Assembly: GCA_030390025.1 (NCBI GenBank)
Contig: CM059431.1
Span: 157,110,001 to 157,174,000, forward strand
Source of the DNA: Squalus acanthias
Lineage: Eukaryota
Length of the DNA: 64,000 nucleotides
Direction: 5' to 3'
Positions 3,813 to 60,419 of the stretch are shown here, piece after piece. The notes below the pieces were generated by a model. That model worked only from the letters and a program-made list of their open reading frames with translations, was not told the origin of the DNA and made no database searches. The first letter of the stretch is position 1; every line of letters begins with the position of its first letter. Position numbers and translations under genes: made by a program.

Positions 3813-4739
3813 TTAGTGTAAACCCCCCCGAAGAGCCGTAGCAAATTTCCCTCCCAGGAAATTGGTGCCCCTCTGGTTCAGGTGCAAACCGTCCTTTTTG
3901 AACAGGTCCCACCTTCCCCAGAATGTGCTCCAATTATCCACATAACTGAAACCCTCCCCCCTACACCATCCCTGCAGCCACGTGTTCATCTGCACTCTCT
4001 CCCGGTTCCTCAACTCGCTAGCACGTGAAACCGGCAACAAACCAGAGATTACAACATGGTTTGTACTGGCTCTCAGCTTCCAACCTAGCTCCCTAAATTC
4101 CTGTTTTAAACCCCCGTCCTTTCTCCTTCCTATGTCGTTGGTACCGATGTGTACCACGACTTGTGATTGTTCCCCCTCCCCCTTGAGGATTCTCAAAACA
4201 CGGTCCGAGACGTCACGGACCCTGGCACCCGGGAGGCAACATACCATCCGTGAGTCTCTTTTGCTGCCACAGAACCTCCTATCTGTCCCTCTGACTATTG
4301 AGTCCCCAGTAACTAATGCTCTCCTGCTCTCCCCCCTTCCCTTCTGAGCTACAGTGACGGACTCTGCGCCGGAGATCTGGTCACCATGGCTTACCACTGG
4401 TAGGTCGTCCCCCACAACAGTATCCGAAGCGGTATACTTGTTACTGAGGGGAACGACCACAGAGGATCCCTGCACTGACTGCTTCCTCCTAGCCCCTCTC
4501 AATGTCACCCATCTATCTTCATTCTTTGGAGTAACTACATCCCTGAAGCTTCTATCTATGACCACTTCTGCCTCCCGAATGATCAGAAGTTCATCCAGCT
4601 CCAGCTCCAGTTCCCTAACGCGGTTTTCGAGGAGCTGGAGATGGGTGCACTTCCCACAGGTGTAATCAGCAGGGACACTGATGGCGTCCCTCACCTCAAA
4701 CATTCTGCAGGAGGAATATTTCACTGCCTCCCCTGCCAT
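3813..4739 (-). CDS. CR1 ORF1 protein: N-terminal zinc finger/leucine-zipper + SGNH(GDSL) esterase domain
   Basis: 308 aa open frame; YTCGKC..LENRVRELELELDEL coiled coil; GDSIVRG, HIGTND, DGLHLN esterase blocks, as known for vertebrate CR1 ORF1p. Confidence 0.9.
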   Translation of the reverse strand: MAGEAVKYSSCRMFEVRDAISVPADYTCGKCTHLQLLENRVRELELELDELLIIREAEVVIDRSFRDVVTPKNEDRWVTLRGARRKQSVQGSSVVVPLSNKYTASDTVVGDDLPVVSHGDQISGAESVTVAQKGRGESRRALVTGDSIVRGTDRRFCGSKRDSRMVCCLPGARVRDVSDRVLRILKGEGEQSQVVVHIGTNDIGRRKDGGLKQEFRELGWKLRASTNHVVISGLLPVSRASELRNRERVQMNTWLQGWCRGEGFSYVDNWSTFWGRWDLFKKDGLHLNQRGTNFLGGKFATALRGGLH

Positions 4740-27479: not shown

Positions 27480-28699
27480 ATGGCCGTTTCTCAATAAGGT
27501 TGATTTATTTCAATGGCTATATTGCATAACAGCAGCCAAAATTTAGGTGATGCCTTGGAATAACGACACATAAAAGAGAAGTATATTGAATTGTGCAGTG
27601 CCGGGGGATTGACTGCCAGGAACAGGGCGACTGTTCCAACCATCACCATTGAGTAACGCGCCGAGAATTCTGTCAACTGTGGGGCAGGCAAGACGCTAAG
27701 AGAAGGCTTGTCAAAAAATTGAACTATCTGATTTCCAGAAGCACCGTTGGTGATTCCACATCGTGTTACCTTTTTCGTGATAACTATGAACAGGTGACTT
27801 TTCCGGGGACGATCGCTCACAAAGAGCGGAGGAAACGTTGTCCTCAATATGCATATAGATTGGGCTACTCAAACTGGATGCATTACGGTGGAGGTGGATT
27901 TCCTGGAGTGTTTAAGGGATGGTTTCCTAAACCAATATGTTGAGGAACCGACTAGAGGGGAGGCCATCCTGGACTGGGTGTTGTGTAATGAGGAAGGACT
28001 AATCAGCAATCTTGTGGTGCGAGGCCCCTTGGGGAAGAGTGACCATAGTATGGTGGAGTTTTACATTAGGATGGAGAAGGAAACAGTTAATTCAGAGACC
28101 ATGATCCAGAACTTAAATAAGGACAACTTTGAGGGTATGAGGCGTGAATTGGTGAGGTTAGATTGACAAGCGATATTTAAGGGGTTATCAACGGAACGGC
28201 AATGGCGGACATTTAGAGATCGCATGGCTGAACTACAGCAATTGTACATCCCTGTCTGGCGTAAAAATAAAAAAGGGAAGGTGGCTCAACCATGGCTAAC
28301 AAGGGAAATCAGTGATATTATTAAAAGCAAGGAAGTGGCATACAAATTGGCCAGAAGTAGCAACAAACACGGGGACTAGGAGAACATTAAAACTCAGCAG
28401 AGGAGGACGAAGGGTTTGGTTAGAGCAGGGAAGGTAAAATATGAAAGGAAGCTTGCGGAGAACATTAAAACGGACTGCAAAAGCTTCTATAAATATGTAA
28501 AAAGAAAGATGTTAGTAAAAACAAACTTAGGTCCCCTGCAGTCAGAAACAGGGGAATTCATAATGGGGAACAAAGAAATAGTAGATCAATTGAACAAGTA
28601 CTTTGGTTCGGTGTTTACTGTGGAGGACACAAACAACCTTCCGGAAATAAAAGAGATCAAAGGATCTGGTAAGAGGGAGGAGCTGAGGGAAATTCTTAT

Positions 28700-31600
28700 A
28701 CATAGATACATAGATACATAGAAGATAGGAGCAGGAGTAGGCCATCCGGCCCTTCGAGCCTGCTCCGCCATTTAATGAGATCATGGCTGATCCTTCAATT
28801 CAGTATCCCGTCCCCGCCTTCTCTCCGTAACCCTTAACCCCTTTTGCCTGTAGAAATATATCTAATTCCCTCTTAAATATATTTAATGAGCTGGCGTACA
28901 CTGCCCTCTGTGGCAATGAGTTCCACAGGTTCACCACTCTCTGAGTGAAGAAATTCCCCCTCATTTCTGTCCTAAATGGTTTAGCCCTTATCCTTAAATT
29001 ATGTCCTCTAGTTCTGTTCTCACCCGCCAAGGGAAACATTCCTTCTGCATCTAGTCTGTCTAGACCTGTCAGAATTTTATACACTTCTATGAGGTCCCCT
29101 CTCAATCTTCTAAACTCCAGTGTGTACATCCCTAAACTACATAGTCTCTCCTCATAGGTCAATCCCGCCATTCCTGGTATCAGCCTGGTGAATCGCCGCT
29201 GCACCCCCTCCATGGCAAGAACATCTTTCCTCAGATGAGGCGACCAAAACTGTACACAGTACTCGAGGTGTGGTCTCACCAGTGCCCTGTACAGCTGCAG
29301 CAAGGTATCCCTGTTCCTGTATTCCAACCCTTTTGCTATGAAGGCCAGCATACCGTTTGCCTTCTTGACCGCCTGTTGCACCTGCATGCTCGCCTTCAGT
29401 GACTGGTGTACAAGAACACCCAGGTCTCTCTGTACTTCCCCCTCTCCCAATTTATTGCCATTTAAATAATAATTTGCCCTCCCGTTCCTGCACCCAAGGT
29501 GGATAACTTCGCACTTGTCCACATTATAGTGCATCTGCCATTTATCCGCCCAATCACCCAGTCTGTCCAAATCGCTCTGGAGCTTCCTGGTCTCCTCCTC
29601 TGAGCCCACCCCCCCTCCTAGTTTAGTGTCGTCTGCAAATTTGGAAATGCTGCATTCGACTCCCTGATCCAGGTCATTAATATAAATTGTGAACAGCTGG
29701 GGACCCAGGACAGATCCCTGTGGTACCCCACTTGTTACTGCCTGCCATTCAGAAAATGAGCCGTTTATTCCAACTCTCTGTTTTCTATCTGACAGCCAGT
29801 TCTCTATCCACGTCAATACTTTCCCCTTTATCCCATGAGCTTCAATTTTCCATGCTAATCTTTTATGTGGGACCTTATCGAAGGCCTTTTGGAAGTCCAG
29901 GTACACCACATCTACTGGCTCTCCCCCATCTATTTTACCAGTTACTCCCTCAAAAAATTCCAATAGATTAGTCAAGCACGATTTACCCTTTGTAAATCCA
30001 TGTTGACTCTGTCCTATCCTGTCCCCATTTGCTAAGTGCTCGGCTATTTCATCCTTAATGATGGACTCCAGCATTTTGCCCACAACTGATGTAAGGCTTA
30101 CAGGTCTGTAATTACCTGCTTTTTCCCTACCCCCCTTTTTGAATAGTGGGGTAACGTTAGCTACCCTCCAATCCATGGGCACTGTTCCCGAGTCTAATGA
30201 ATTCTGAAAAATCATGCTTAGTGCATCCGCTATCTCTAGGGCCACCTCTTTCAGTACCCTAGGATGCATGTTATCAGGCCCTGGGGATTTGTCCGCCTTC
30301 AATCCCTTTAGCTTCCTTAACACCATATCCTTAGAGATATTGATTTGCGTCAGTTCCTCCTTTGCCAATGTCCCTATTTTTCCCGATATCCCAGGGAGGT
30401 TTTTTGTGTCTTCCTTCGTAAAGACTGACCCAAAGTATGCATTTAGTTGGTCTGCCATTTCCTTATTTCCCATTATATATTCCCCCGTATCTGACTGCAA
30501 TGGACCAACTTTGGTTTTCACCAGTCTTTTCCTCTTGATATACTTATAAAAGCTTTTGGAGTTAGTTTTTATATTTTCCGCCAGCTTGCTTTCGTAAGCT
30601 ATTTTGCCCTTCTTGATTAAGCCCTTTGCCCTCCTTTGCTCTATCTTAAACTGTTCCCAATCTTCCGCTCTGGCGCGTTTTTTGGCTATTTTATACGCCC
30701 TATCTTTGGATTTTATGCTGTCTCTAATTTCCCCTGTTGTCCACGGTTGAGTCACCTTTTTAGATTTCCTTTTATGCCAGATTGGTATAAACAATTTTTG
30801 CAATTTTGTCATTCTATCTTTAAATGCTTGCCATTGTTTATCTACCTCCAGTCCTCCCAGGAACGTTGTCCAATCAGACCTACTCAGTTCCCGTCTAATG
30901 GCATCATAATTCCCCTTGTTTAAATTCAGGACCTGAGTCTCTGAGTCAATTTCTTCGCTCTCCATTTCGAGTGAGAAATCGATCATGTTATGATCGCTCT
31001 GACCCAAGGGTCCCCGTACAACAAGATTACTAATTAGTCCCTTCTCATTGCACAGTACCCAGTCCAATATAGCCTGTTCCCGAGTTGGTTCCTCGACATA
31101 TTGATCCAGATAACCATCCCTTAAACACTCAAGGAATTCCTCCTCCTCATTATTTTTACTGATTAGGCTAGTCCAATCTATATGTAAGTTAAAGTCACCT
31201 ATGATGACAGCTGTGCTCTTATTGCACGCTTCTCTAATTTCCCTCGTGATGCCCTCCCCAACCTCTATTTTACTATTTGGAGGCCTATATACCACTCCTA
31301 TTAATGTTTTTCGCCCCTCGCTATTTCTTAGCTCCACCCATATAGATTCTGTATTAACTGAGTTAATATCCTTCCTTTCAATTGCATTTATCCCCTCTTT
31401 TACCAGCAATGCTACCCCTCCTCCCTTTCTTTTTTGTCGATCCTTCCTAAATACTGAATACCCCTGTATGTTAAGCTCCCAGCCCTGCTCACCCTGCAAC
31501 CATGTTTCCGTAATCCCAATTAGATCATAATTATTAACCTCTATTTCCACAGCTAATTCATCTACCTTGTTCCTGATGCTTCTCGCATTAAGGTATAAAA

Positions 31601-31992
31601 CCCTCAGGCTTTTTTTATGCTCACATTTTTTATGAATTAGTTTGGCCCTTTGTTTTTTGTTCCTCTCCTTTTTACCATTTATTTCTGTCTGCCTTTCACT
31701 TTCCTCTATTTCACTACATGGGTTTCTAGCCCCCTGCCATACTAGTTTAAATGCTCCCGAACTGCTTTATCAAAATTTACCCCGAGAACCTCAGTTCCAT
31801 CTTTGCACAGGTGTAGACCGTCCCTTTTGTATAGGTCACACCTACCACAAAACTGGTCCCAATGCCTCAAAAATTTAAAACCCTCCCTCTTACACCACTG
31901 CTCAAGCCACGTATTTAGCCTAACTATCCTGTTCTCTGTACTCTTACTAGCACGTGGCACTGGTAGTAATCCAGAGATTACTACCTTCGAGG
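28700..31992 (-). mobile_element. Young 5'-truncated CR1 LINE (copy E): ORF1 C-terminus, complete ORF2, (TATCTATG)n tail
   Basis: Tail acatagatacatagatacatag at 28700; ORF1 end ...DGLHL...REHLN* at 31742; ORF2 without stops or frameshifts. Confidence 0.96.
28800..31751 (-). CDS. Intact CR1 ORF2 (APE endonuclease + RT); frame is open from the ORF1 slippery site (984 codons incl. stop)
   Basis: ORF track 28800-31550 starts at GTG; the frame continues 67 codons upstream through [66 protein letters not shown] all intact. Confidence 0.93.
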   Translation of the reverse strand, partial: FKLVWQGARNPCSEIEESERQTEINGKKERNKKQRAKLIHKKCEHKKSLRVLYLNARSIRNKVDELAVEIEVNNYDLIGITETWLQGEQGWELNIQGYSVFRKDRQKRKGGGVALLVKEGINAIERKDINSVNTESIWVELRNSEGRKTLIGVVYRPPNSKIEVGEGITREIREACNKSTAVIIGDFNLHIDWTSLISKNNEEEEFLECLRDGYLDQYVEEPTREQAILDWVLCNEKGLISNLVVRGPLGQSDHNMIDFSLEMESEEIDSETQVLNLNKGNYDAIRRELSRSDWTTFLGGLEVDKQWQAFKDRMTKLQKLFIPIWHKRKSKKVTQPWTTGEIRDSIKSKDRAYKIAKKRARAEDWEQFKIEQRRAKGLIKKGKIAYESKLAENIKTNSKSFYKYIKRKRLVKTKVGPLQSDTGEYIMGNKEMADQLNAYFGSVFTKEDTKNLPGISGKIGTLAKEELTQINISKDMVLRKLKGLKADKSPGPDNMHPRVLKEVALEIADALSMIFQNSLDSGTVPMDWRVANVTPLFKKGGREKAGNYRPVSLTSVVGKMLESIIKDEIAEHLANGDRIGQSQHGFTKGKSCLTNLLEFFEGVTGKIDGGEPVDVVYLDFQKAFDKVPHKRLAWKIEAHGIKGKVLTWIENWLSDRKQRVGINGSFSEWQAVTSGVPQGSVLGPQLFTIYINDLDQGVECSISKFADDTKLGGGVGSEEETRKLQSDLDRLGDWADKWQMHYNVDKCEVIHLGCRNGRANYYLNGNKLGEGEVQRDLGVLVHQSLKASMQVQQAVKKANGMLAFIAKGLEYRNRDTLLQLYRALVRPHLEYCVQFWSPHLRKDVLAMEGVQRRFTRLIPGMAGLTYEERLCSLGMYTLEFRRLRGDLIEVYKILTGLDRLDAEGMFPLAGENRTRGHNLRIRAKPFRTEMRGNFFTQRVVNLWNSLPQRAVYASSLNIFKRELDIFLQAKGVKGYGEKAGTGY

Positions 31993-32566
31993 TATCAGTC
32001 GGGAAAAGGTGTTGGAGAAATTGATGGGACTGAATGCTGATAAATCCCCAGGGCCTGATGGTCTGCATCCCAGAGTATTAAGGAGGTGGCCTTGGAAATA
32101 GTGGATGCATTGACGATCATTTTCCAACATTCCTTAGACTCTGGATCAGTTCCGAAGGAGTGGAGGGTGGCTAATGTAACCCCTCTTTTTAAAAAAGGAG
32201 GGAGGGAGAAAGCAGGGAATTAGAGACCGATCAGCCTGTCATCGGTGGTGGGTAAAATGATGGAATCAATTATTAAAGATGTCATAACAGACCATTTGGA
32301 AAGTGGCGACATGATAGGTCCAAGTCAGCATGGATTTGTGAAAGAGAAATCATGCTTGACAAATCTTCTGGAATTTTTTGAGGATGTTTCCAGTAGGGTG
32401 GACGGGGGGGAACCAGTAGATGTGGTGTATTTGGACTTTCAGAAGGCCTTCGACAAGGTCCCACACAAGAGATTGGTGTGCAAAGATAAAGCACATGGGA
32501 TTGGGGGTAATGTGTTGACGTGGATTGAGAACTGGTTGGCACAAAGGAAACAAAGAGTAGGAGTAA

Positions 32567-33665
32567 CAACAGAAAACGCTGGAAAAACTCAGCAGGCCAG
32601 GCAGCATCCGTGGAGAGAGAAAGAGAGTTAACGTTTCAGGTCGATGACCTTTCGTCAGAACTGTGAAGAGCCGGAAATCAAATAGATTTAAGGCCAGAGT
32701 AAAGCTGGGAAAAGGGGGAGGGGATAAAAGAACAAAGGGGGAGATGAAGAGACATTAAGAGACATTAAGAGATATGCAAGGCTAGAGGTGGTGTTAATGT
32801 GACAGATTAAGGCTGAAAGAAGTGTGAAATCCACTGGCAGAATGAAGGACAGCTGCCAGCTTCTAGGAGGAAAAAAAAGGTGGGGGGGGGCAAATAAAAG
32901 GGTGGAAAAAATAAAATATAAATGTGATTGGAGCTGAGGTTATGATCTAAAATTGTTGAACTCGATATTGAGTCCAGAGGGCTGTAGCGTGCCTAAACGA
33001 AAGATGAGGTGCTGTTCCTCGAGCTTACGCTGCGCTTCCGTGGAACAGTGTAATAGGCCGAGGACGGTGAGGTCAGAGTGGGAGTGAAGCGGTGAATTAA
33101 AGTGACAGGCCACCGGGAGCTCGGGGTCCCCCTTACGGACTGAACGGAGGTGTTCCGCAAAGCGGTCACCCAATCTGCGTTTGGTCTCCCCAATGTAGAG
33201 GAGACCACATCGTGAGCAGCGAATACAGTATACTAAATTGCAGGAAGTACAAGTAAATCGCTTTTTCACCTGGAAGGGGTGTTTGGGGCCGTGGACAGTG
33301 GGAAGAGGGGAGGTGTAAGGGCATGTGTTGCATCTCCTTCGCGTGCATGGGAAGGTGCCGGGCGAAGGGGAAGGGGTGCTGGGGGTGGTAGAGGAGTGGA
33401 CTAGGGTGTCGCGGAGGGAGCGGTCCCTGCGGAATGCTGAAAGGGGAGGTGTGGGGAAGATGTGTTTGGTGGTGGGATCACGCTGGAGGTGGCGGAAATG
33501 GCGGAGGAAGATCCGTTGAATATGGAGGCTGGTGGGTTGAAAGGTGAGGACAAGGGGAACCCTATCGTGGTTCCGGGAGGGAGGGGCAGGGGTGAGGGCA
33601 GAAGTGCGGGAGATAGAACGGACACGGTCGAGGGCCGTGTCGACCACGGTAGAGGGGAATCCCCC
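32567..33665 (-). mobile_element. 5'-truncated Penelope-like element (P2): GIY-YIG domain + hammerhead 3' end
   Basis: 14-bp TSD AAGAGTAGGAGTAA (32553-32566 / 33666-33679); ORF 32940-33647 with NLVYCIRCSRCGLLYIGETKRRLGDRFAEH...GLN; hammerhead AGUU-CUGACGA...GAAACGUU-AACU at ~32626-32663. Confidence 0.93.
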
Positions 33666-35227
33666 AAGAGTAGGAGTAAATGGGTGCTTTTCAGAATATC
33701 AGGCAGTGACCAGCGGGGTACCGCAGGGTTCGGTGCTGGGGCCACAGCTGTTTACATTACATATTAATGATTTGGACGAAGGGATTAATTGTAGTATCTC
33801 CAAATTTGCGGATGACACTAAATTGGGAGGCAGTGTGAACAATGAGGAGGATGCTAGGAGGCTACAGAGTGACTTGGACAGTTTGGGTGAATGGGCAAAT
33901 GTATGGCAGATGAAGTACAATGTGCATAAATGTGAGGTTATCCACTTTGGTGGTAAAAATAGGGAGGCAGACTATTACCTGAATGGTGGCAGATTAGGGA
34001 AAGGGGAGGTGCAACGAGACCTGGGCGTCATGGTACATCAGTCACTGAAGGTGGGAAGGCAAGTGCAGCAGGCAGTCAAGAAAGCAAATGGCATGATGGC
34101 CTTCATAGCAAGGGGATTTGAGTACAGGAGTAGGGAGGTGATGCTACAGTTGTACAGGGCCTTGGTGAGGCCACACCTGGAGTATTGTGTGCAGTTTTGA
34201 TCTCCTAACTTGAGGAAGGACATTCTTGCTATTGAGGGAGTGCAACGAAGGTTCACTAGATTGATTCCTGGGATGGCCAGACTGACATGTCAATAAAGAC
34301 TGGATCAACTGAACTTGTATCCTCTGGAGTTCAGAAGAATGAGGGGGGATCTTATAGAGACGTTTAAAATCCTGTCTGGTTTAGACAAATTAGATGCGGG
34401 CAGAATGTTTCCAATGTTAGGGAAAACTAAAACCAGGGGTCACAGTCTAAGGATAAAGGGGAAGCAATTTAAGACTGAGACGAGGAGCAACTTCTTCACC
34501 CAGAGAGTGGTGAATCTGTGGAATTCTCTACCACAGAAGGTTGTTGAGGCCAGTTCGCTAAATATATTCAAAAGGGAGTTACATATAATACTCACAACTA
34601 GGGGGATCAAGGGCTATGGCGAGAAAGCAGGAATGGGGTACTGAGGTAGCATGTTCAGCCATGAACGCATTAAATGGCGGTGCAGGCTCGAAGGACCGAA
34701 TGGTCTACTCCTGCACCTATGTTCTATGTTTCTATGAAAACAATATGGAATCAGATGGAAGCACTAAATTTGTTATACTCCATCAACGTGATATCCTATG
34801 CTGCTTGCGTTCAATGTATCCGAATAGCAGAACTTTGAGATTGCTAAGGGTTATCAATTGTAAGGGTACATTAAACTCTATAATAAACTAATTACATATT
34901 GTACCTATTCTGGCAACATAATGGACTCACTGCTGTGAATTGCAGCAATCAAGAGCAGGTAGTTGTCAAGTCAGCTTCTGATGTGTGCTAAATTGACAAT
35001 ATCATGTGCAAACAAAGCTGTGGTGAGGTGGGAGTGGGGGGCGCGGGGCTGTGGGGAGCGGTGAGAGGGGTGATGGCTGTGCCCGGCTTCGCGCTCTTTA
35101 TTAACACCTATTGATGACGAACAGGCAAAGTGTAGTAAGGCCTCACGCATTCTAATTTTTCAGTTTAGAGTGTAAAGCATCACTGGGAGTGAGTTAAAAT
35201 GCCGTAATCAAATTTCAGATGTGACTT

Positions 35228-42200: not shown

Positions 42201-43090
42201 CCTGTATTTTCTGAACATTTTGTACCCTTGAATATTAAGTGCCCAGTCCTCACCGTTTCTAAGCCACGTTTCCGTTATTGCCACAACATCATATTGCCAG
42301 GCGGCTAATTGTAGCTCATCAAACTTATTTACCAAACTTTGTGCGTTTACGTACATGCATTCTAAGCCATTTTTGAATTTTTCGTAGTCTTCCTTCGTCT
42401 GCTCCTGCCTAATATGGTACTTCAAACGCCTCTAGTACGATCTTCTCTAGTACGATCCAACACACTCTCTCATTTATGCACCCTTTTCCTCTTTGCTACT
42501 ATTATATGCTGGTGTCCATCCCCCTGCCAAGTTAGTTTACTGCCCCCCAACAGCACTAGCGAACCTCCCCGCGAGAATATTGGTCCCGGCTCTGTTGAGG
42601 TGTTACCCGTCCGGCTTGTACAGGTCCCACCTTCCACAGAAACGGTCCCAATGCCTCAGGAATCTAAAGCCCTCCCTCCTGCATCATCTCTCCAGCCACG
42701 CATTCATCTATTCTATCCTCCTATTCCTGTACTCACTAGCACGTGGCACCGGGAGTAATCCGGAGATTACTACCTTTGAGGTCCTGCTTTTGAATCTCTC
42801 TCCTAGCTCCCTAAACTCTGCCTGCAAGACCTCATCCCTCTTTCTGCCAATGTCGTTGATACCGATATGGACAACGACCTCTGACTGTTCCCCCTCCCCG
42901 TTCAGTGTCCTGAAGCCGCTCAGCGACACCCTTGACCCTGGCAGCAGGGAGGAAACATACCATCCTGGAATCACGTTATGGAGAAACGCCTGTCTGTTCC
43001 CCTAAGTATCGAATCCCCTACCACTATGGCTCTTCCGTTATTTTTCCTCGCAGCGTGACTCTGAGCCACCCGTGGTGCCGTGGACTTGTC
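39290..43090 (-). mobile_element. Degenerate CR1 (copy I): tail, ORF2, ORF1 esterase fragment
   Basis: Tail tatagtcatagagtcata at 39290; EN ORF 41397-42425 (YVNAQSL, ITETW, YRPP, GDFN, SDH); ORF1 HIGINDIG 42708-42974. Confidence 0.9.
39693..39892. mobile_element. 200-bp palindromic Penelope (P1-family) mini-insertion
   Basis: 15-bp TSD TTAATGAAAACAAAT (39678-39692 / 39893-39907); two inverted copies of the P1 3' end meeting at the hammerhead. Confidence 0.88.
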
Positions 43091-59267: not shown

Positions 59268-60419
59268 TGATGACTGCTGTGCCCTTACTGTATGCTTCTC
59301 TAATTTCCATTTTAATGCCACCCCCGAACTCCGTATTGCTGTTTGGAGGTCTATATTGCACTCTCACTACCTTTTCCTGCCCCTTGTTATTTCTCAGTTC
59401 TACCCATACAGATTCTGCATCATCAGAGCTAATGTCCTTCCTTTCAATTGTGTTAATCCCCTCTTTAACCAGCAATGCTACCCCACGTCCATTTCTTTCT
59501 TGCCTATCTTTCCTAAATATTGAATACCCCTGGATGTTGAGTTCCCAGCTTTGGCCACCCTGGAGCCATGTTTCTGTAATCCCAATCAAATCGTGTTAAT
59601 TTACCTCTATTTGCGCAGCTAATTCATCCACCTTGTTCCGAATGATCCTTGCATTAAGACACAAAGCGTTCAGGCTTGTTTTTTTAACGCTCTCAAACCT
59701 ATATGAATTGTTATTTCCTGTGACCATGATTGATTTAAACCGTTGAGTTCTTTGCCTTCTACTTTTCTTTATCTCCTTCCTGTCTTTTGCTTTTATCCTT
59801 GTTTCCCTTTCCTCTGTCTCCCTGCTCAGGTTCCCAACACCCTGGCACTTTAGTTGAAACCCTCCCCAACAGCACTAGCAAACACTCCCGCTAGGACATC
59901 GGTCCCGGCCCTGCCCAGGTGCAGACCGTCCGATTGTACTGCTCCCACCTCCTCCAGAACCGGTTCCAATATCCAAGGAATTTGAATCTCTTCCCCTTGC
60001 ACCATTCCTCTACCCAAGTATTCATTTGAAATATCCTCCTATTTCTACTCTGACTAGCACGTGGCACTGGTAGCAATCCTGAGATTACTTCCTTTGAGGT
60101 CCTATTTTTTAATTTACCTCCTAACACCCTATATTCTGCTTTTAGGACCTCATCCCGTTTTTTACCTATATCGTTGATGCCTATGTGCACCACGACAACT
60201 GGCTGTTCGACCTTCCCCTCCAAAATGTTCTGTAGCCGCTCCATGACGTCCTTGTCCCTTGCACCAGGGATGCAACACACCATCCTGGAGTCTCATTTGC
60301 GGCCGCAGAAATGCCTATCTATTCCCCTTACAATTGAGTCCCCTATCACTATAGCTCTTCCACACTTTTTCCTCCCAGCTTGTGCAGTAGCAGAGCCACC
60401 CATGGTGCCAGGAACTTTC

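Follow-up and report, generated by a model that had tools for sequence, protein, structure and literature searches.

How the second open reading frame (ORF2) of a long interspersed nuclear element (LINE) is translated from a bicistronic RNA is a long-standing question, studied mainly in the human element L1 and in SART1. The same question is posed by a CR1-type element, copy E, on the minus strand of a 64,000-nucleotide (nt) stretch of the Squalus acanthias genome (assembly GCA_030390025.1, contig CM059431.1, positions 157,110,001 to 157,174,000; hereafter the window). An earlier note on this DNA had proposed the heptamer U_UUA_AAC at the end of ORF1 as a candidate site of programmed -1 ribosomal frameshifting, which would join ORF1 to the endonuclease (EN) and the reverse transcriptase (RT) that ORF2 encodes. 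The junction was compared between copy E, its relatives in the 3.7 Gb genome that contains the window, and proteins of other species. The comparative evidence, that is conservation of the heptamer at synonymous positions and an open -1 frame, supports the proposal, and programmed -1 frameshifting of the gag-pol kind is probably how those CR1 LINEs of this genome that carry ORF1 express ORF2.

The ORF1/ORF2 junction of copy E

Read directly from the minus strand, the junction is ...GAG CAT TTA AAC TAG TAT GGC AGG GGG CTA GAA ACC..., with the heptamer in the ORF1 frame immediately before the stop codon, as had been claimed. The elements of the junction are as follows.

31745..31993, minus strand: last 83 ORF1 codons of copy E, the C-terminal part of the SGNH/GDSL esterase domain (megablast against the full-length copy L015; weak PF13472 match on the fragment)
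31767..31769, minus strand: TAA that opens the ORF2 (-1) frame, five codons upstream of the heptamer; the ORF1/ORF2 overlap is about 25 nt
31745..31751, minus strand: slippery heptamer T_TTA_AAC (U_UUA_AAC) in the ORF1 frame, made of the last two ORF1 codons, Leu-Asn, and the wobble T of the preceding codon
31742..31744, minus strand: ORF1 stop TAG, abutting the heptamer on its 3' side; most other subfamilies have TAA here
31602..31741, minus strand: purine-rich linker from the shift site to the endonuclease, an AUG-free part of the ORF2 coding frame with 0 stops in 47 codons
28800..31766, minus strand: ORF2 frame, 988 codons plus stop, encoding an apurinic-type endonuclease (PF03372/PF14529, residues 60-262) and a reverse transcriptase (PF00078, residues 546-756)

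Across the site the -1 frame reads TTT AAA CTA GTA TGG CAG GGG and remains open to a stop at 28802-28800. The open frame thus stands as described; its length is 983 codons counted from TTT, or 988 counted from the TAA at 31769-31767, rather than the 984 first given. The heptamer has the phase X_XXY_YYZ in the zero (ORF1) frame, and the phase is identical in representatives of five subfamilies. Elsewhere in the element there are seven in-frame X_XXY_YYZ heptamers in about 1,300 other codons; by chance alone, the 8-codon overlap of one family should contain about 0.04, a figure that leaves conservation uncounted.

The first in-frame AUG of ORF2 comes only after the SDH motif, in agreement with the earlier reading: the Met is residue 261, directly after SDHN. 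An ATG does occur in copy E two nucleotides past the ORF1 stop (31740-31738), in the third frame, where it encodes MAGG-stop only. The possibility that this ATG is the true ORF2 start, displaced by a 1-nt change of the G-run in copy E, was rejected because the run of five G is equal in E, in subfamilies F4 and F5 and in most copies of subfamily F2, and because the ATG is absent in other subfamilies. Nor did E, F2, F4 or F5 show the UAAUG layout of the SART1/influenza B type, in which an in-frame AUG overlaps or abuts the ORF1 stop; F2, F4 and F5 lack the ATG altogether.

Copy E had been called intact, which is correct for ORF2. Its ORF1 is 5'-truncated at 31993, a point that corresponds to position 1408 of L015 and to about ORF1 codon 232; the stretch 31993-30099 matches 1408-3301 of L015 at 99.8% identity (megablast). 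When the genome was searched with a 301-nt junction probe of family E, 40 of 40 scored matches, among 727 first-look candidates, were 100% identical over the 301 nt, and the junction was identical in all 30 family E loci that were fetched. Nine of these 30 keep a 315-amino-acid (aa), ATG-started ORF1 ending at the site. Family E is young and active. The complete 315-aa ORF1 protein (ORF1p) comprises a Cys-rich N-terminus, a coiled coil and an SGNH/GDSL esterase domain (PF13472, 1.4e-11, residues 150-298), and its last 17 residues lie beyond the domain model because the match ends at residue 298 of 315. Two more in-frame slippery-type heptamers, G_GGT_TTT and A_AAT_TTT, are found in ORF1 of family E (L015:712-1659) at ORF nt 806 and 911; the second lies 27 nt upstream of the junction heptamer, and its -1 frame soon reaches a stop.

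Conservation of the heptamer among subfamilies

Five older junctions in the window had been described, each carrying a different mutation. Alignment bore out their coordinates and single changes, and the five were used as probes with which relatives were fetched for each subfamily.

3816..3822, minus strand: decayed junction TTTACAC-TAA, subfamily F4 (alignment); TTTAAAC-TAA in 10/10 genomic relatives, majority junction GGT TTA AAC TAA
37571..37577, minus strand: decayed junction ATTAAAC, subfamily F3 (alignment); TTTAAAC in 8/10 relatives, majority junction GCT TTA AAC TAA
42535..42541, minus strand: decayed junction AGTAAAC-TAA with a 1-nt deletion, subfamily F5 (alignment); TTTAAAC-TAG/TAA in 8/10 relatives, majority junction GGT TTA AAC TAG
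59853..59859, minus strand: decayed junction TTTCAAC-TAA, subfamily F2 (alignment); TTTAAAC in 28/30 loci, the window copy being among the 30, majority junction GGT TTA AAC TAA
61844..61850, minus strand: decayed junction GTTAAAA-TAA, F3-like (alignment)

In the majority form of each probed subfamily the exact heptamer was restored. The corresponding junction of family E, CAT TTA AAC TAG, carried it in 30/30 loci.

An alligator ORF1 protein used as query against the genome gave a sample independent of the window's copies. Of the 147 places listed, 40 whose match reached the last residue were taken (the first 20 such places, and 20 at intervals down the list) with 151 nt around each. T_TTA_AAC followed by TAA or TAG was present in 38 of the 40 and TTTGAAC in the other two; the sample added subfamilies Fa, Fb, Fc and Fd, which have differing flanks. 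Altogether, 130 junctions were compared, drawn from at least eight diverged subfamilies, and 120 of them have the exact heptamer with an adjacent TAA or TAG.

Because selecting matches that extend to the last residue might enrich for Leu-Asn ends, 20 places with matches ending short of it were fetched as well. All 20 proved to be Fc/F5-like. TTTAAAC was present in 16 (ten in the ORF1 frame with a stop behind, three running straight through in the ORF2 frame and three in another frame); two had G_TTA_AAC and two were otherwise changed. The scatter of frames is accounted for by a run of 7-13 G directly beside the heptamer of subfamily Fc (GGGGGGGGTTTAAAC; compare window 42535-42560), whose length differs among copies. 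This G-run is a hotspot for length change: in three of the 20 sampled copies ORF1 and ORF2 are fused in one frame, so that some copies encode a ready-made fusion, and in another three the frame is shifted the other way.

No subfamily was found with other Leu or Asn codons at the site. Such codons were confined to scattered decayed copies, and in none of the subfamilies did young copies freely use synonymous Leu/Asn codons.

Counterparts 90-93% identical to the window copies of F3 and F5 are confined to a few Mb of the same contig (C7:154.9-159.4 Mb), the remaining relatives being about 80% (F3) or 92% (F5) identical. This suggests a local segmental duplication of the region.

Constraint on the codons of the heptamer

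The last 25 ORF1 codons were compared in the five subfamily representatives. Over the 23 codons preceding Leu-Asn, pairwise nucleotide identity ranged from 43 to 78%. Leu is nonetheless encoded by TTA and Asn by AAC in 5/5, and the codon before them (His CAT, Gly GGT or Ala GCT) ends in T in every representative. Of eight other degenerate columns in which the amino acid is invariant, a single codon was kept in one (His CAC); three other invariant Leu columns use five, three and three different codons. This is the pattern expected if selection acts on the seven bases themselves, beyond what the encoded amino acids need. Given the small sample and the kinship of the subfamilies, we regard this evidence as strong but not overwhelming. 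Within this genome, the heptamer is conserved at synonymous positions across diverged CR1 lineages.

The entry into the ORF2 frame

In the five representatives the -1 frame opens 5, 5, 1, 37 and 5 codons before TTT. The interval is narrow, and entry into ORF2 must therefore fall within a stretch that contains the heptamer. In the 47 codons past the heptamer the ORF2 frame has no stop in E, F2, F4 or F5, so that a conserved stop in the -1 frame is absent from all four; in the other two frames the same stretch contains 5 and 8 stops in E, 4 and 3 in F2, 3 and 3 in F4, and 6 and 9 in F5. The old F3 representative has one ORF2-frame stop in 21 codons; F3 copies carry many indels in a poly-G tract. 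In E and F4, both of them young families, no AUG lies between the interval of frame opening and the endonuclease core.

Relatives in other species

A protein search with the 315-aa ORF1p returned 105 proteins, and the named ones in the top 51 are from sharks, rays and skates. Of these 51, 34 end in Leu-Asn. Among the remaining 17, 14 lack the C-terminal DGLHL motif and hence stop short of the ORF1 end, one ends ten residues past that motif, and the last two read ...GFKLNLQGAG... and ...DFKLDRLGGG..., as the -1 frame of TTTAAAC-TA would give. A further stingray gene model, among the longer proteins, reads ...GGFKLDVQGAG.... ORF1 continues into ORF2 in one frame in the stingray gene models P0033 and P0107 and in the ENA record P0049. 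In 34 of the 35 proteins with a Leu-Asn end these two residues are preceded by G, T, A, D, S, C or Y, all encodable as NNT; in one the preceding residue is E, which would give G/A_UUA_AAC. Among the 54 weaker matches a Leu-Asn end occurs only in one alligator protein, and cyprinid-type relatives end otherwise. Both the length and the sequence of the ORF1p tail before Leu-Asn, outside the Pfam esterase domain, are variable. L314 and N315 are invariant in 30 alignment rows, which were chosen for reaching the C-terminus and so restate the Leu-Asn count.

A metagenome scan yielded only distant esterase LINEs (22-36% identity), many of them from contigs of invertebrate-associated samples. In distant LINEs with an esterase ORF1, ORF1 ends in TGA and an ATG follows within 2-5 bases (for example TGA-CCATGCATGG). 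The differing junctions hint that ORF2 strategies may vary within esterase-type LINEs. A scan of bacterial and archaeal genome contigs for CR1 junctions of other species returned bacterial SGNH hydrolases only.

In public runs of seven organisms, 61-78% of sampled junction words were present. Run X10 gave a 200-nt contig over 31690-31889 with four differences, none of them in 31742-31751, and no inserted or missing letters; this is weak evidence, its RNA origin being a guess and contigs dropping rare variants. Three raw-read runs placed 8, 0 and 0 reads at the junction, too few for a test.

Pieces of CR1 ORF1 or ORF2 also stand in the databases under unrelated names (P0013, P0107, P0050/P0051, P0092 and P0117), namely as a Pseudomonas aeruginosa SGNH hydrolase, as hydroxyacid oxidase 2 and transmembrane protein 204 isoforms from rays, and as a 'hypothetical protein' of Carnobacterium. 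Such entries appear to result from contamination or from chimeric gene models.

A model for ORF2 expression

In the frameshift model, ribosomes translating ORF1 would reach U_UUA_AAC with tRNA-Leu on UUA and tRNA-Asn on AAC. The majority would go on to the adjacent UAG or UAA and release ORF1p, while a minority would slip one base back to UUU_AAA, by tandem -1 slippage, and then read CUA. The predicted transframe product, an analogue of Gag-Pol about 1,300 aa long, joins esterase, linker, endonuclease and RT (in family E through ...REHLN-LVWQGARN...). Slippage would in this way set a low ratio of ORF2 to ORF1 products without an ORF2 start codon. That slippage occurs, how efficient it is, and that the fusion is the active form are what we infer from the junction. 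Single-ORF CR1/L2 subgroups with N-terminal accessory domains are described in the passages found (PMC4120745), so that a fused architecture is not implausible.

The context downstream of the heptamer contains a candidate stimulator.

31730..31739, minus strand: conserved motif TGGCAGGGGG, 5 nt past the heptamer, with a G5 run at 31734-31730 (alignments)

A run of at least five G starting no more than 12 nt past the heptamer is present in 103 of 120 junctions, mostly at an offset of 7-10, a suitable distance for a stimulator, and in E, F2, F4 and F5 the run is part of T(G/T)GCAGGGGG. Our guess is that the 3'-adjacent stop and the G-run 7-10 nt downstream might act jointly to give a low but sufficient shift rate. 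A broader version of the model is possible, if doubtful. In it U_UUA_AAC, the adjacent stop and the G-run 7-10 nt downstream would have formed a fixed cassette since before the shark/ray split, possibly since a common ancestor with crocodilians, with no classical stem-loop or pseudoknot; the G-run, acting as a quadruplex, by binding a protein or through contact with the ribosome, would together with the stop be a new kind of natural -1 frameshift stimulator, and the ORF1-ORF2 fusion would be the active enzyme.

Observations that weigh against frameshifting

A number of findings speak against the frameshift model. The 75-90 nt past the site in eight subfamilies fold no better than dinucleotide shuffles (minimum free energy (MFE) z -1.20 to +0.60, pseudoknots being outside the model), so that the stem-loop looked for there did not emerge above shuffled controls. 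A search of the downstream region against Rfam gave no match at E <= 1, and MFE and G-quadruplex-aware folding of the junction gave nothing convincing. The region is 78% purine (first 100 nt, copy E). RNA G-quadruplexes are able to stimulate -1 frameshifting in engineered constructs, according to the passages seen (PMC3919603), and a two-tetrad G-quadruplex motif lies within 45 nt in 20/27 junctions of F2, 7/7 of F3, 10/10 of F4, 8/8 of F5 and 26/38 of the alligator-query sample. It is present in 0/30 junctions of family E, the youngest, so a quadruplex cannot be an obligatory part. Sequences complementary to the G-rich motif were scanned for, and no partner proved to be conserved; in E and F2 the best complements lie about 0.9-1.0 kb upstream and show no evident mutual homology. 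A TURBS-like UGGGA motif occurs downstream in some subfamilies and is absent in E (alignments). The downstream context of the CR1 site is unusual.

The remaining points are of other kinds. The subfamilies are related by descent and are hence not fully independent observations. In other species the heptamer appears conserved as judged from proteins, which reflect its nucleotides indirectly. The linker holds an in-frame AUG in F2, 24 codons ahead of the endonuclease, and in most F5 copies, five codons ahead of it; Fb has one five codons past the site (TAA ATATTGGGGGC ATG GGA), and judging from its sequence, frameshifting and reinitiation would both be open to Fb. Linker AUGs are likewise where the ORF2 models of relatives begin in the databases; these starts are gene-caller choices and, except for P0107, uninformative on the junction. 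Finally, the LINEs studied so far, human L1 and SART1, do not frameshift, in the passages available (PMC3708506).

Alternative explanations

The alternative that survives best, which we hold to be unlikely, is termination followed by reinitiation, or initiation in the linker. A 40S subunit would stay on the RNA after UAG/UAA and restart nearby in the ORF2 frame at a non-AUG or AUG codon; ORF2 protein would be separate and the heptamer unused. A mechanism of the reinitiation type is what has been reported for LINEs so far, being proposed for human L1 and demonstrated for SART1, as the passages found describe it (PMC3708506, PMC5009743), and it fits the absence of a detected stimulatory structure, the linker AUGs of F2, F5, Fb and the relatives' ORF2 models, the presence of CTG in E and TTG in F4 at the position of the F5 AUG, and the stop-then-ATG junctions of distant esterase-type LINEs (TGA-CCATGCATGG). 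Reinitiation nevertheless leaves two things unexplained: that every subfamily keeps TTA, AAC and the T at the wobble position before them while synonymous sites close by drift, and that the ORF2 frame is open from the heptamer and not from a restart codon. Moreover, no AUG is conserved, E and F4 have none before the catalytic core of the endonuclease, and the ATG beside the E stop is in the wrong frame and absent from other subfamilies.

It is improbable that the site has no role in recoding, Leu-Asn or TTTAAAC being kept for another cause (a C-terminal signal of the protein, RNA packaging or an RT recognition element) and the slippery appearance being coincidental. Such a view is in keeping with the invariance of Leu-Asn in all relatives that reach the ORF1 C-terminus and with the failure to find a stimulator. 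Against it, constraint on the protein alone would fix neither codon choice nor the wobble base of a preceding, variable codon; the tail before Leu-Asn is variable and outside the folded domain; and the motif lies exactly in the 8-codon interval where the ORF2 frame opens, in the correct phase, ahead of an ORF2 that has no start codon.

Slippage of a polymerase, in transcription or reverse transcription, on flanking G-runs, placing ORF1 and ORF2 in one frame in a fraction of RNAs or copies, is hardly credible as the general explanation: the variable run of 7-13 G abutting the Fc heptamer, the three of 20 copies that read straight from ORF1 into ORF2 (GGG TTT AAA CTA...) and the three gene models that read likewise (P0033, P0107, P0049) are what it would produce, but no homopolymer precedes the site in family E (CGG GAG CAT), the downstream G5 run lies behind the ORF1 stop and is unable to fuse the frames, the X10 contig crosses the site with no inserted or missing letters (a weak point, since contigs drop rare variants and the RNA origin is guessed), and the conservation of the heptamer would be left unexplained.

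Comparison with known systems

U_UUA_AAC serves as a -1 frameshift site in coronaviruses, most arteriviruses and sobemoviruses, with G_UUA_AAC in equine arteritis virus. CR1 shares with these sites the heptamer, its phase, a short overlap of the frames and a downstream frame that encodes a polymerase and has no start of its own. The viral sites have a pseudoknot or stem-loop 5-7 nt downstream, whereas none was detected in CR1, which has instead an adjacent zero-frame stop and a G-run 7-10 nt downstream; the viral hosts of the site are RNA viruses, whereas here it is found in a nuclear LINE. A zero-frame stop directly behind the heptamer is known from luteovirus and dianthovirus shift sites (for example G_GGU_UUU_UAG), which use an adjacent bulged stem-loop and long-distance pairing. 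The CR1 stop is likewise immediately 3' of the shift site; unlike in these viruses, the scan of CR1 found no conserved pairing partner of the G-rich motif.

Frameshifting at X_XXY_YYZ is textbook knowledge for retroviruses, long terminal repeat (LTR) elements and many RNA viruses. In 28 of 51 animal LTR elements pol is in the -1 frame, many of them with heptamers, in the passages found of a 2016 review (PMC5009743). As with gag-pol of retroviruses and LTR retrotransposons, the proposal for CR1 is that of an abundant zero-frame structural or accessory protein and a rare -1 fusion carrying the enzymes. Unlike them, non-LTR elements have no Gag homologue, the CR1 ORF1 product is an esterase, and there is no protease to cut the fusion.

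The spacer of human L1 is 63 nt. L1 uses an unconventional termination/reinitiation, and Bombyx SART1 couples stop and start at UAAUG, in the parts of the sources seen (PMC3708506, PMC5009743). CR1 resembles both in being a LINE with a bicistronic RNA whose ORF2 product would be made rarely and depend on ORF1 translation; it differs in that family E has no in-frame AUG at the junction, where SART1 has an overlapping one, and carries a phased slippery heptamer instead. For the Dictyostelium LINEs TRE5-A and TRE3-A a -1 frameshift is said, in the text seen, to be required for ORF2 (PMC5911963). These too are LINEs of the apurinic endonuclease (APE) type with overlapping ORFs and ORF2 in the -1 frame, and there too frameshifting was proposed from sequence. 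They belong to another clade and have another type of ORF1, and the text seen states neither a canonical heptamer nor its conservation.

The passages found of the 2016 review mention, among non-LTR elements, only HeT-A, TART and mammalian LINEs (PMC5009743). Our full-text literature searches, beyond whose reach lie older CR1 papers and Repbase notes, found no earlier report of a U_UUA_AAC site in CR1 and, within the same scope, nothing in print on how CR1 ORF2 is made.

The element and its surroundings

28698..28799, minus strand: 3' untranslated region of copy E with a (TCTATGTA)3 microsatellite tail at about 28722-28698 (coordinates approximate)

The 3' end of copy E carries the short microsatellite (TCTATGTA)3 in place of poly(A). 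A short microsatellite 3' tail is a defining feature of CR1. The name CR1 rests here on the earlier note, the domain layout and this tail.

LINE insertions are nested around copy E. On the opposite strand, immediately upstream of where copy E is truncated, lie other fragments of CR1-type reverse transcriptase at 31970-32631 (+) and 33541-34644 (+), with a PF00078 match on 33541-34200 (+). At 32943-33698 (-) a 252-codon open frame matches the GIY-YIG nuclease motif slightly below the Pfam cut-off (PF01541, E 1.9e-4) and looks like a fragment of a Penelope-like retroelement adjoining copy E.

Implications

A phased, codon-conserved canonical slippery site turns the question of CR1 ORF2 expression into a concrete hypothesis that a reporter assay can test. 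CR1-group elements are described, in the passages available, as the dominant retrotransposons of most vertebrates (PMC13343379). If the frameshift model is true, CR1 would be a vertebrate LINE with the Gag-Pol strategy of retroviruses, its predicted enzyme would be an esterase-EN-RT fusion protein, and the junction would be a natural -1 frameshift site without obvious RNA structure. Annotation would also improve, since gene predictors now split or mis-fuse the CR1 ORFs.

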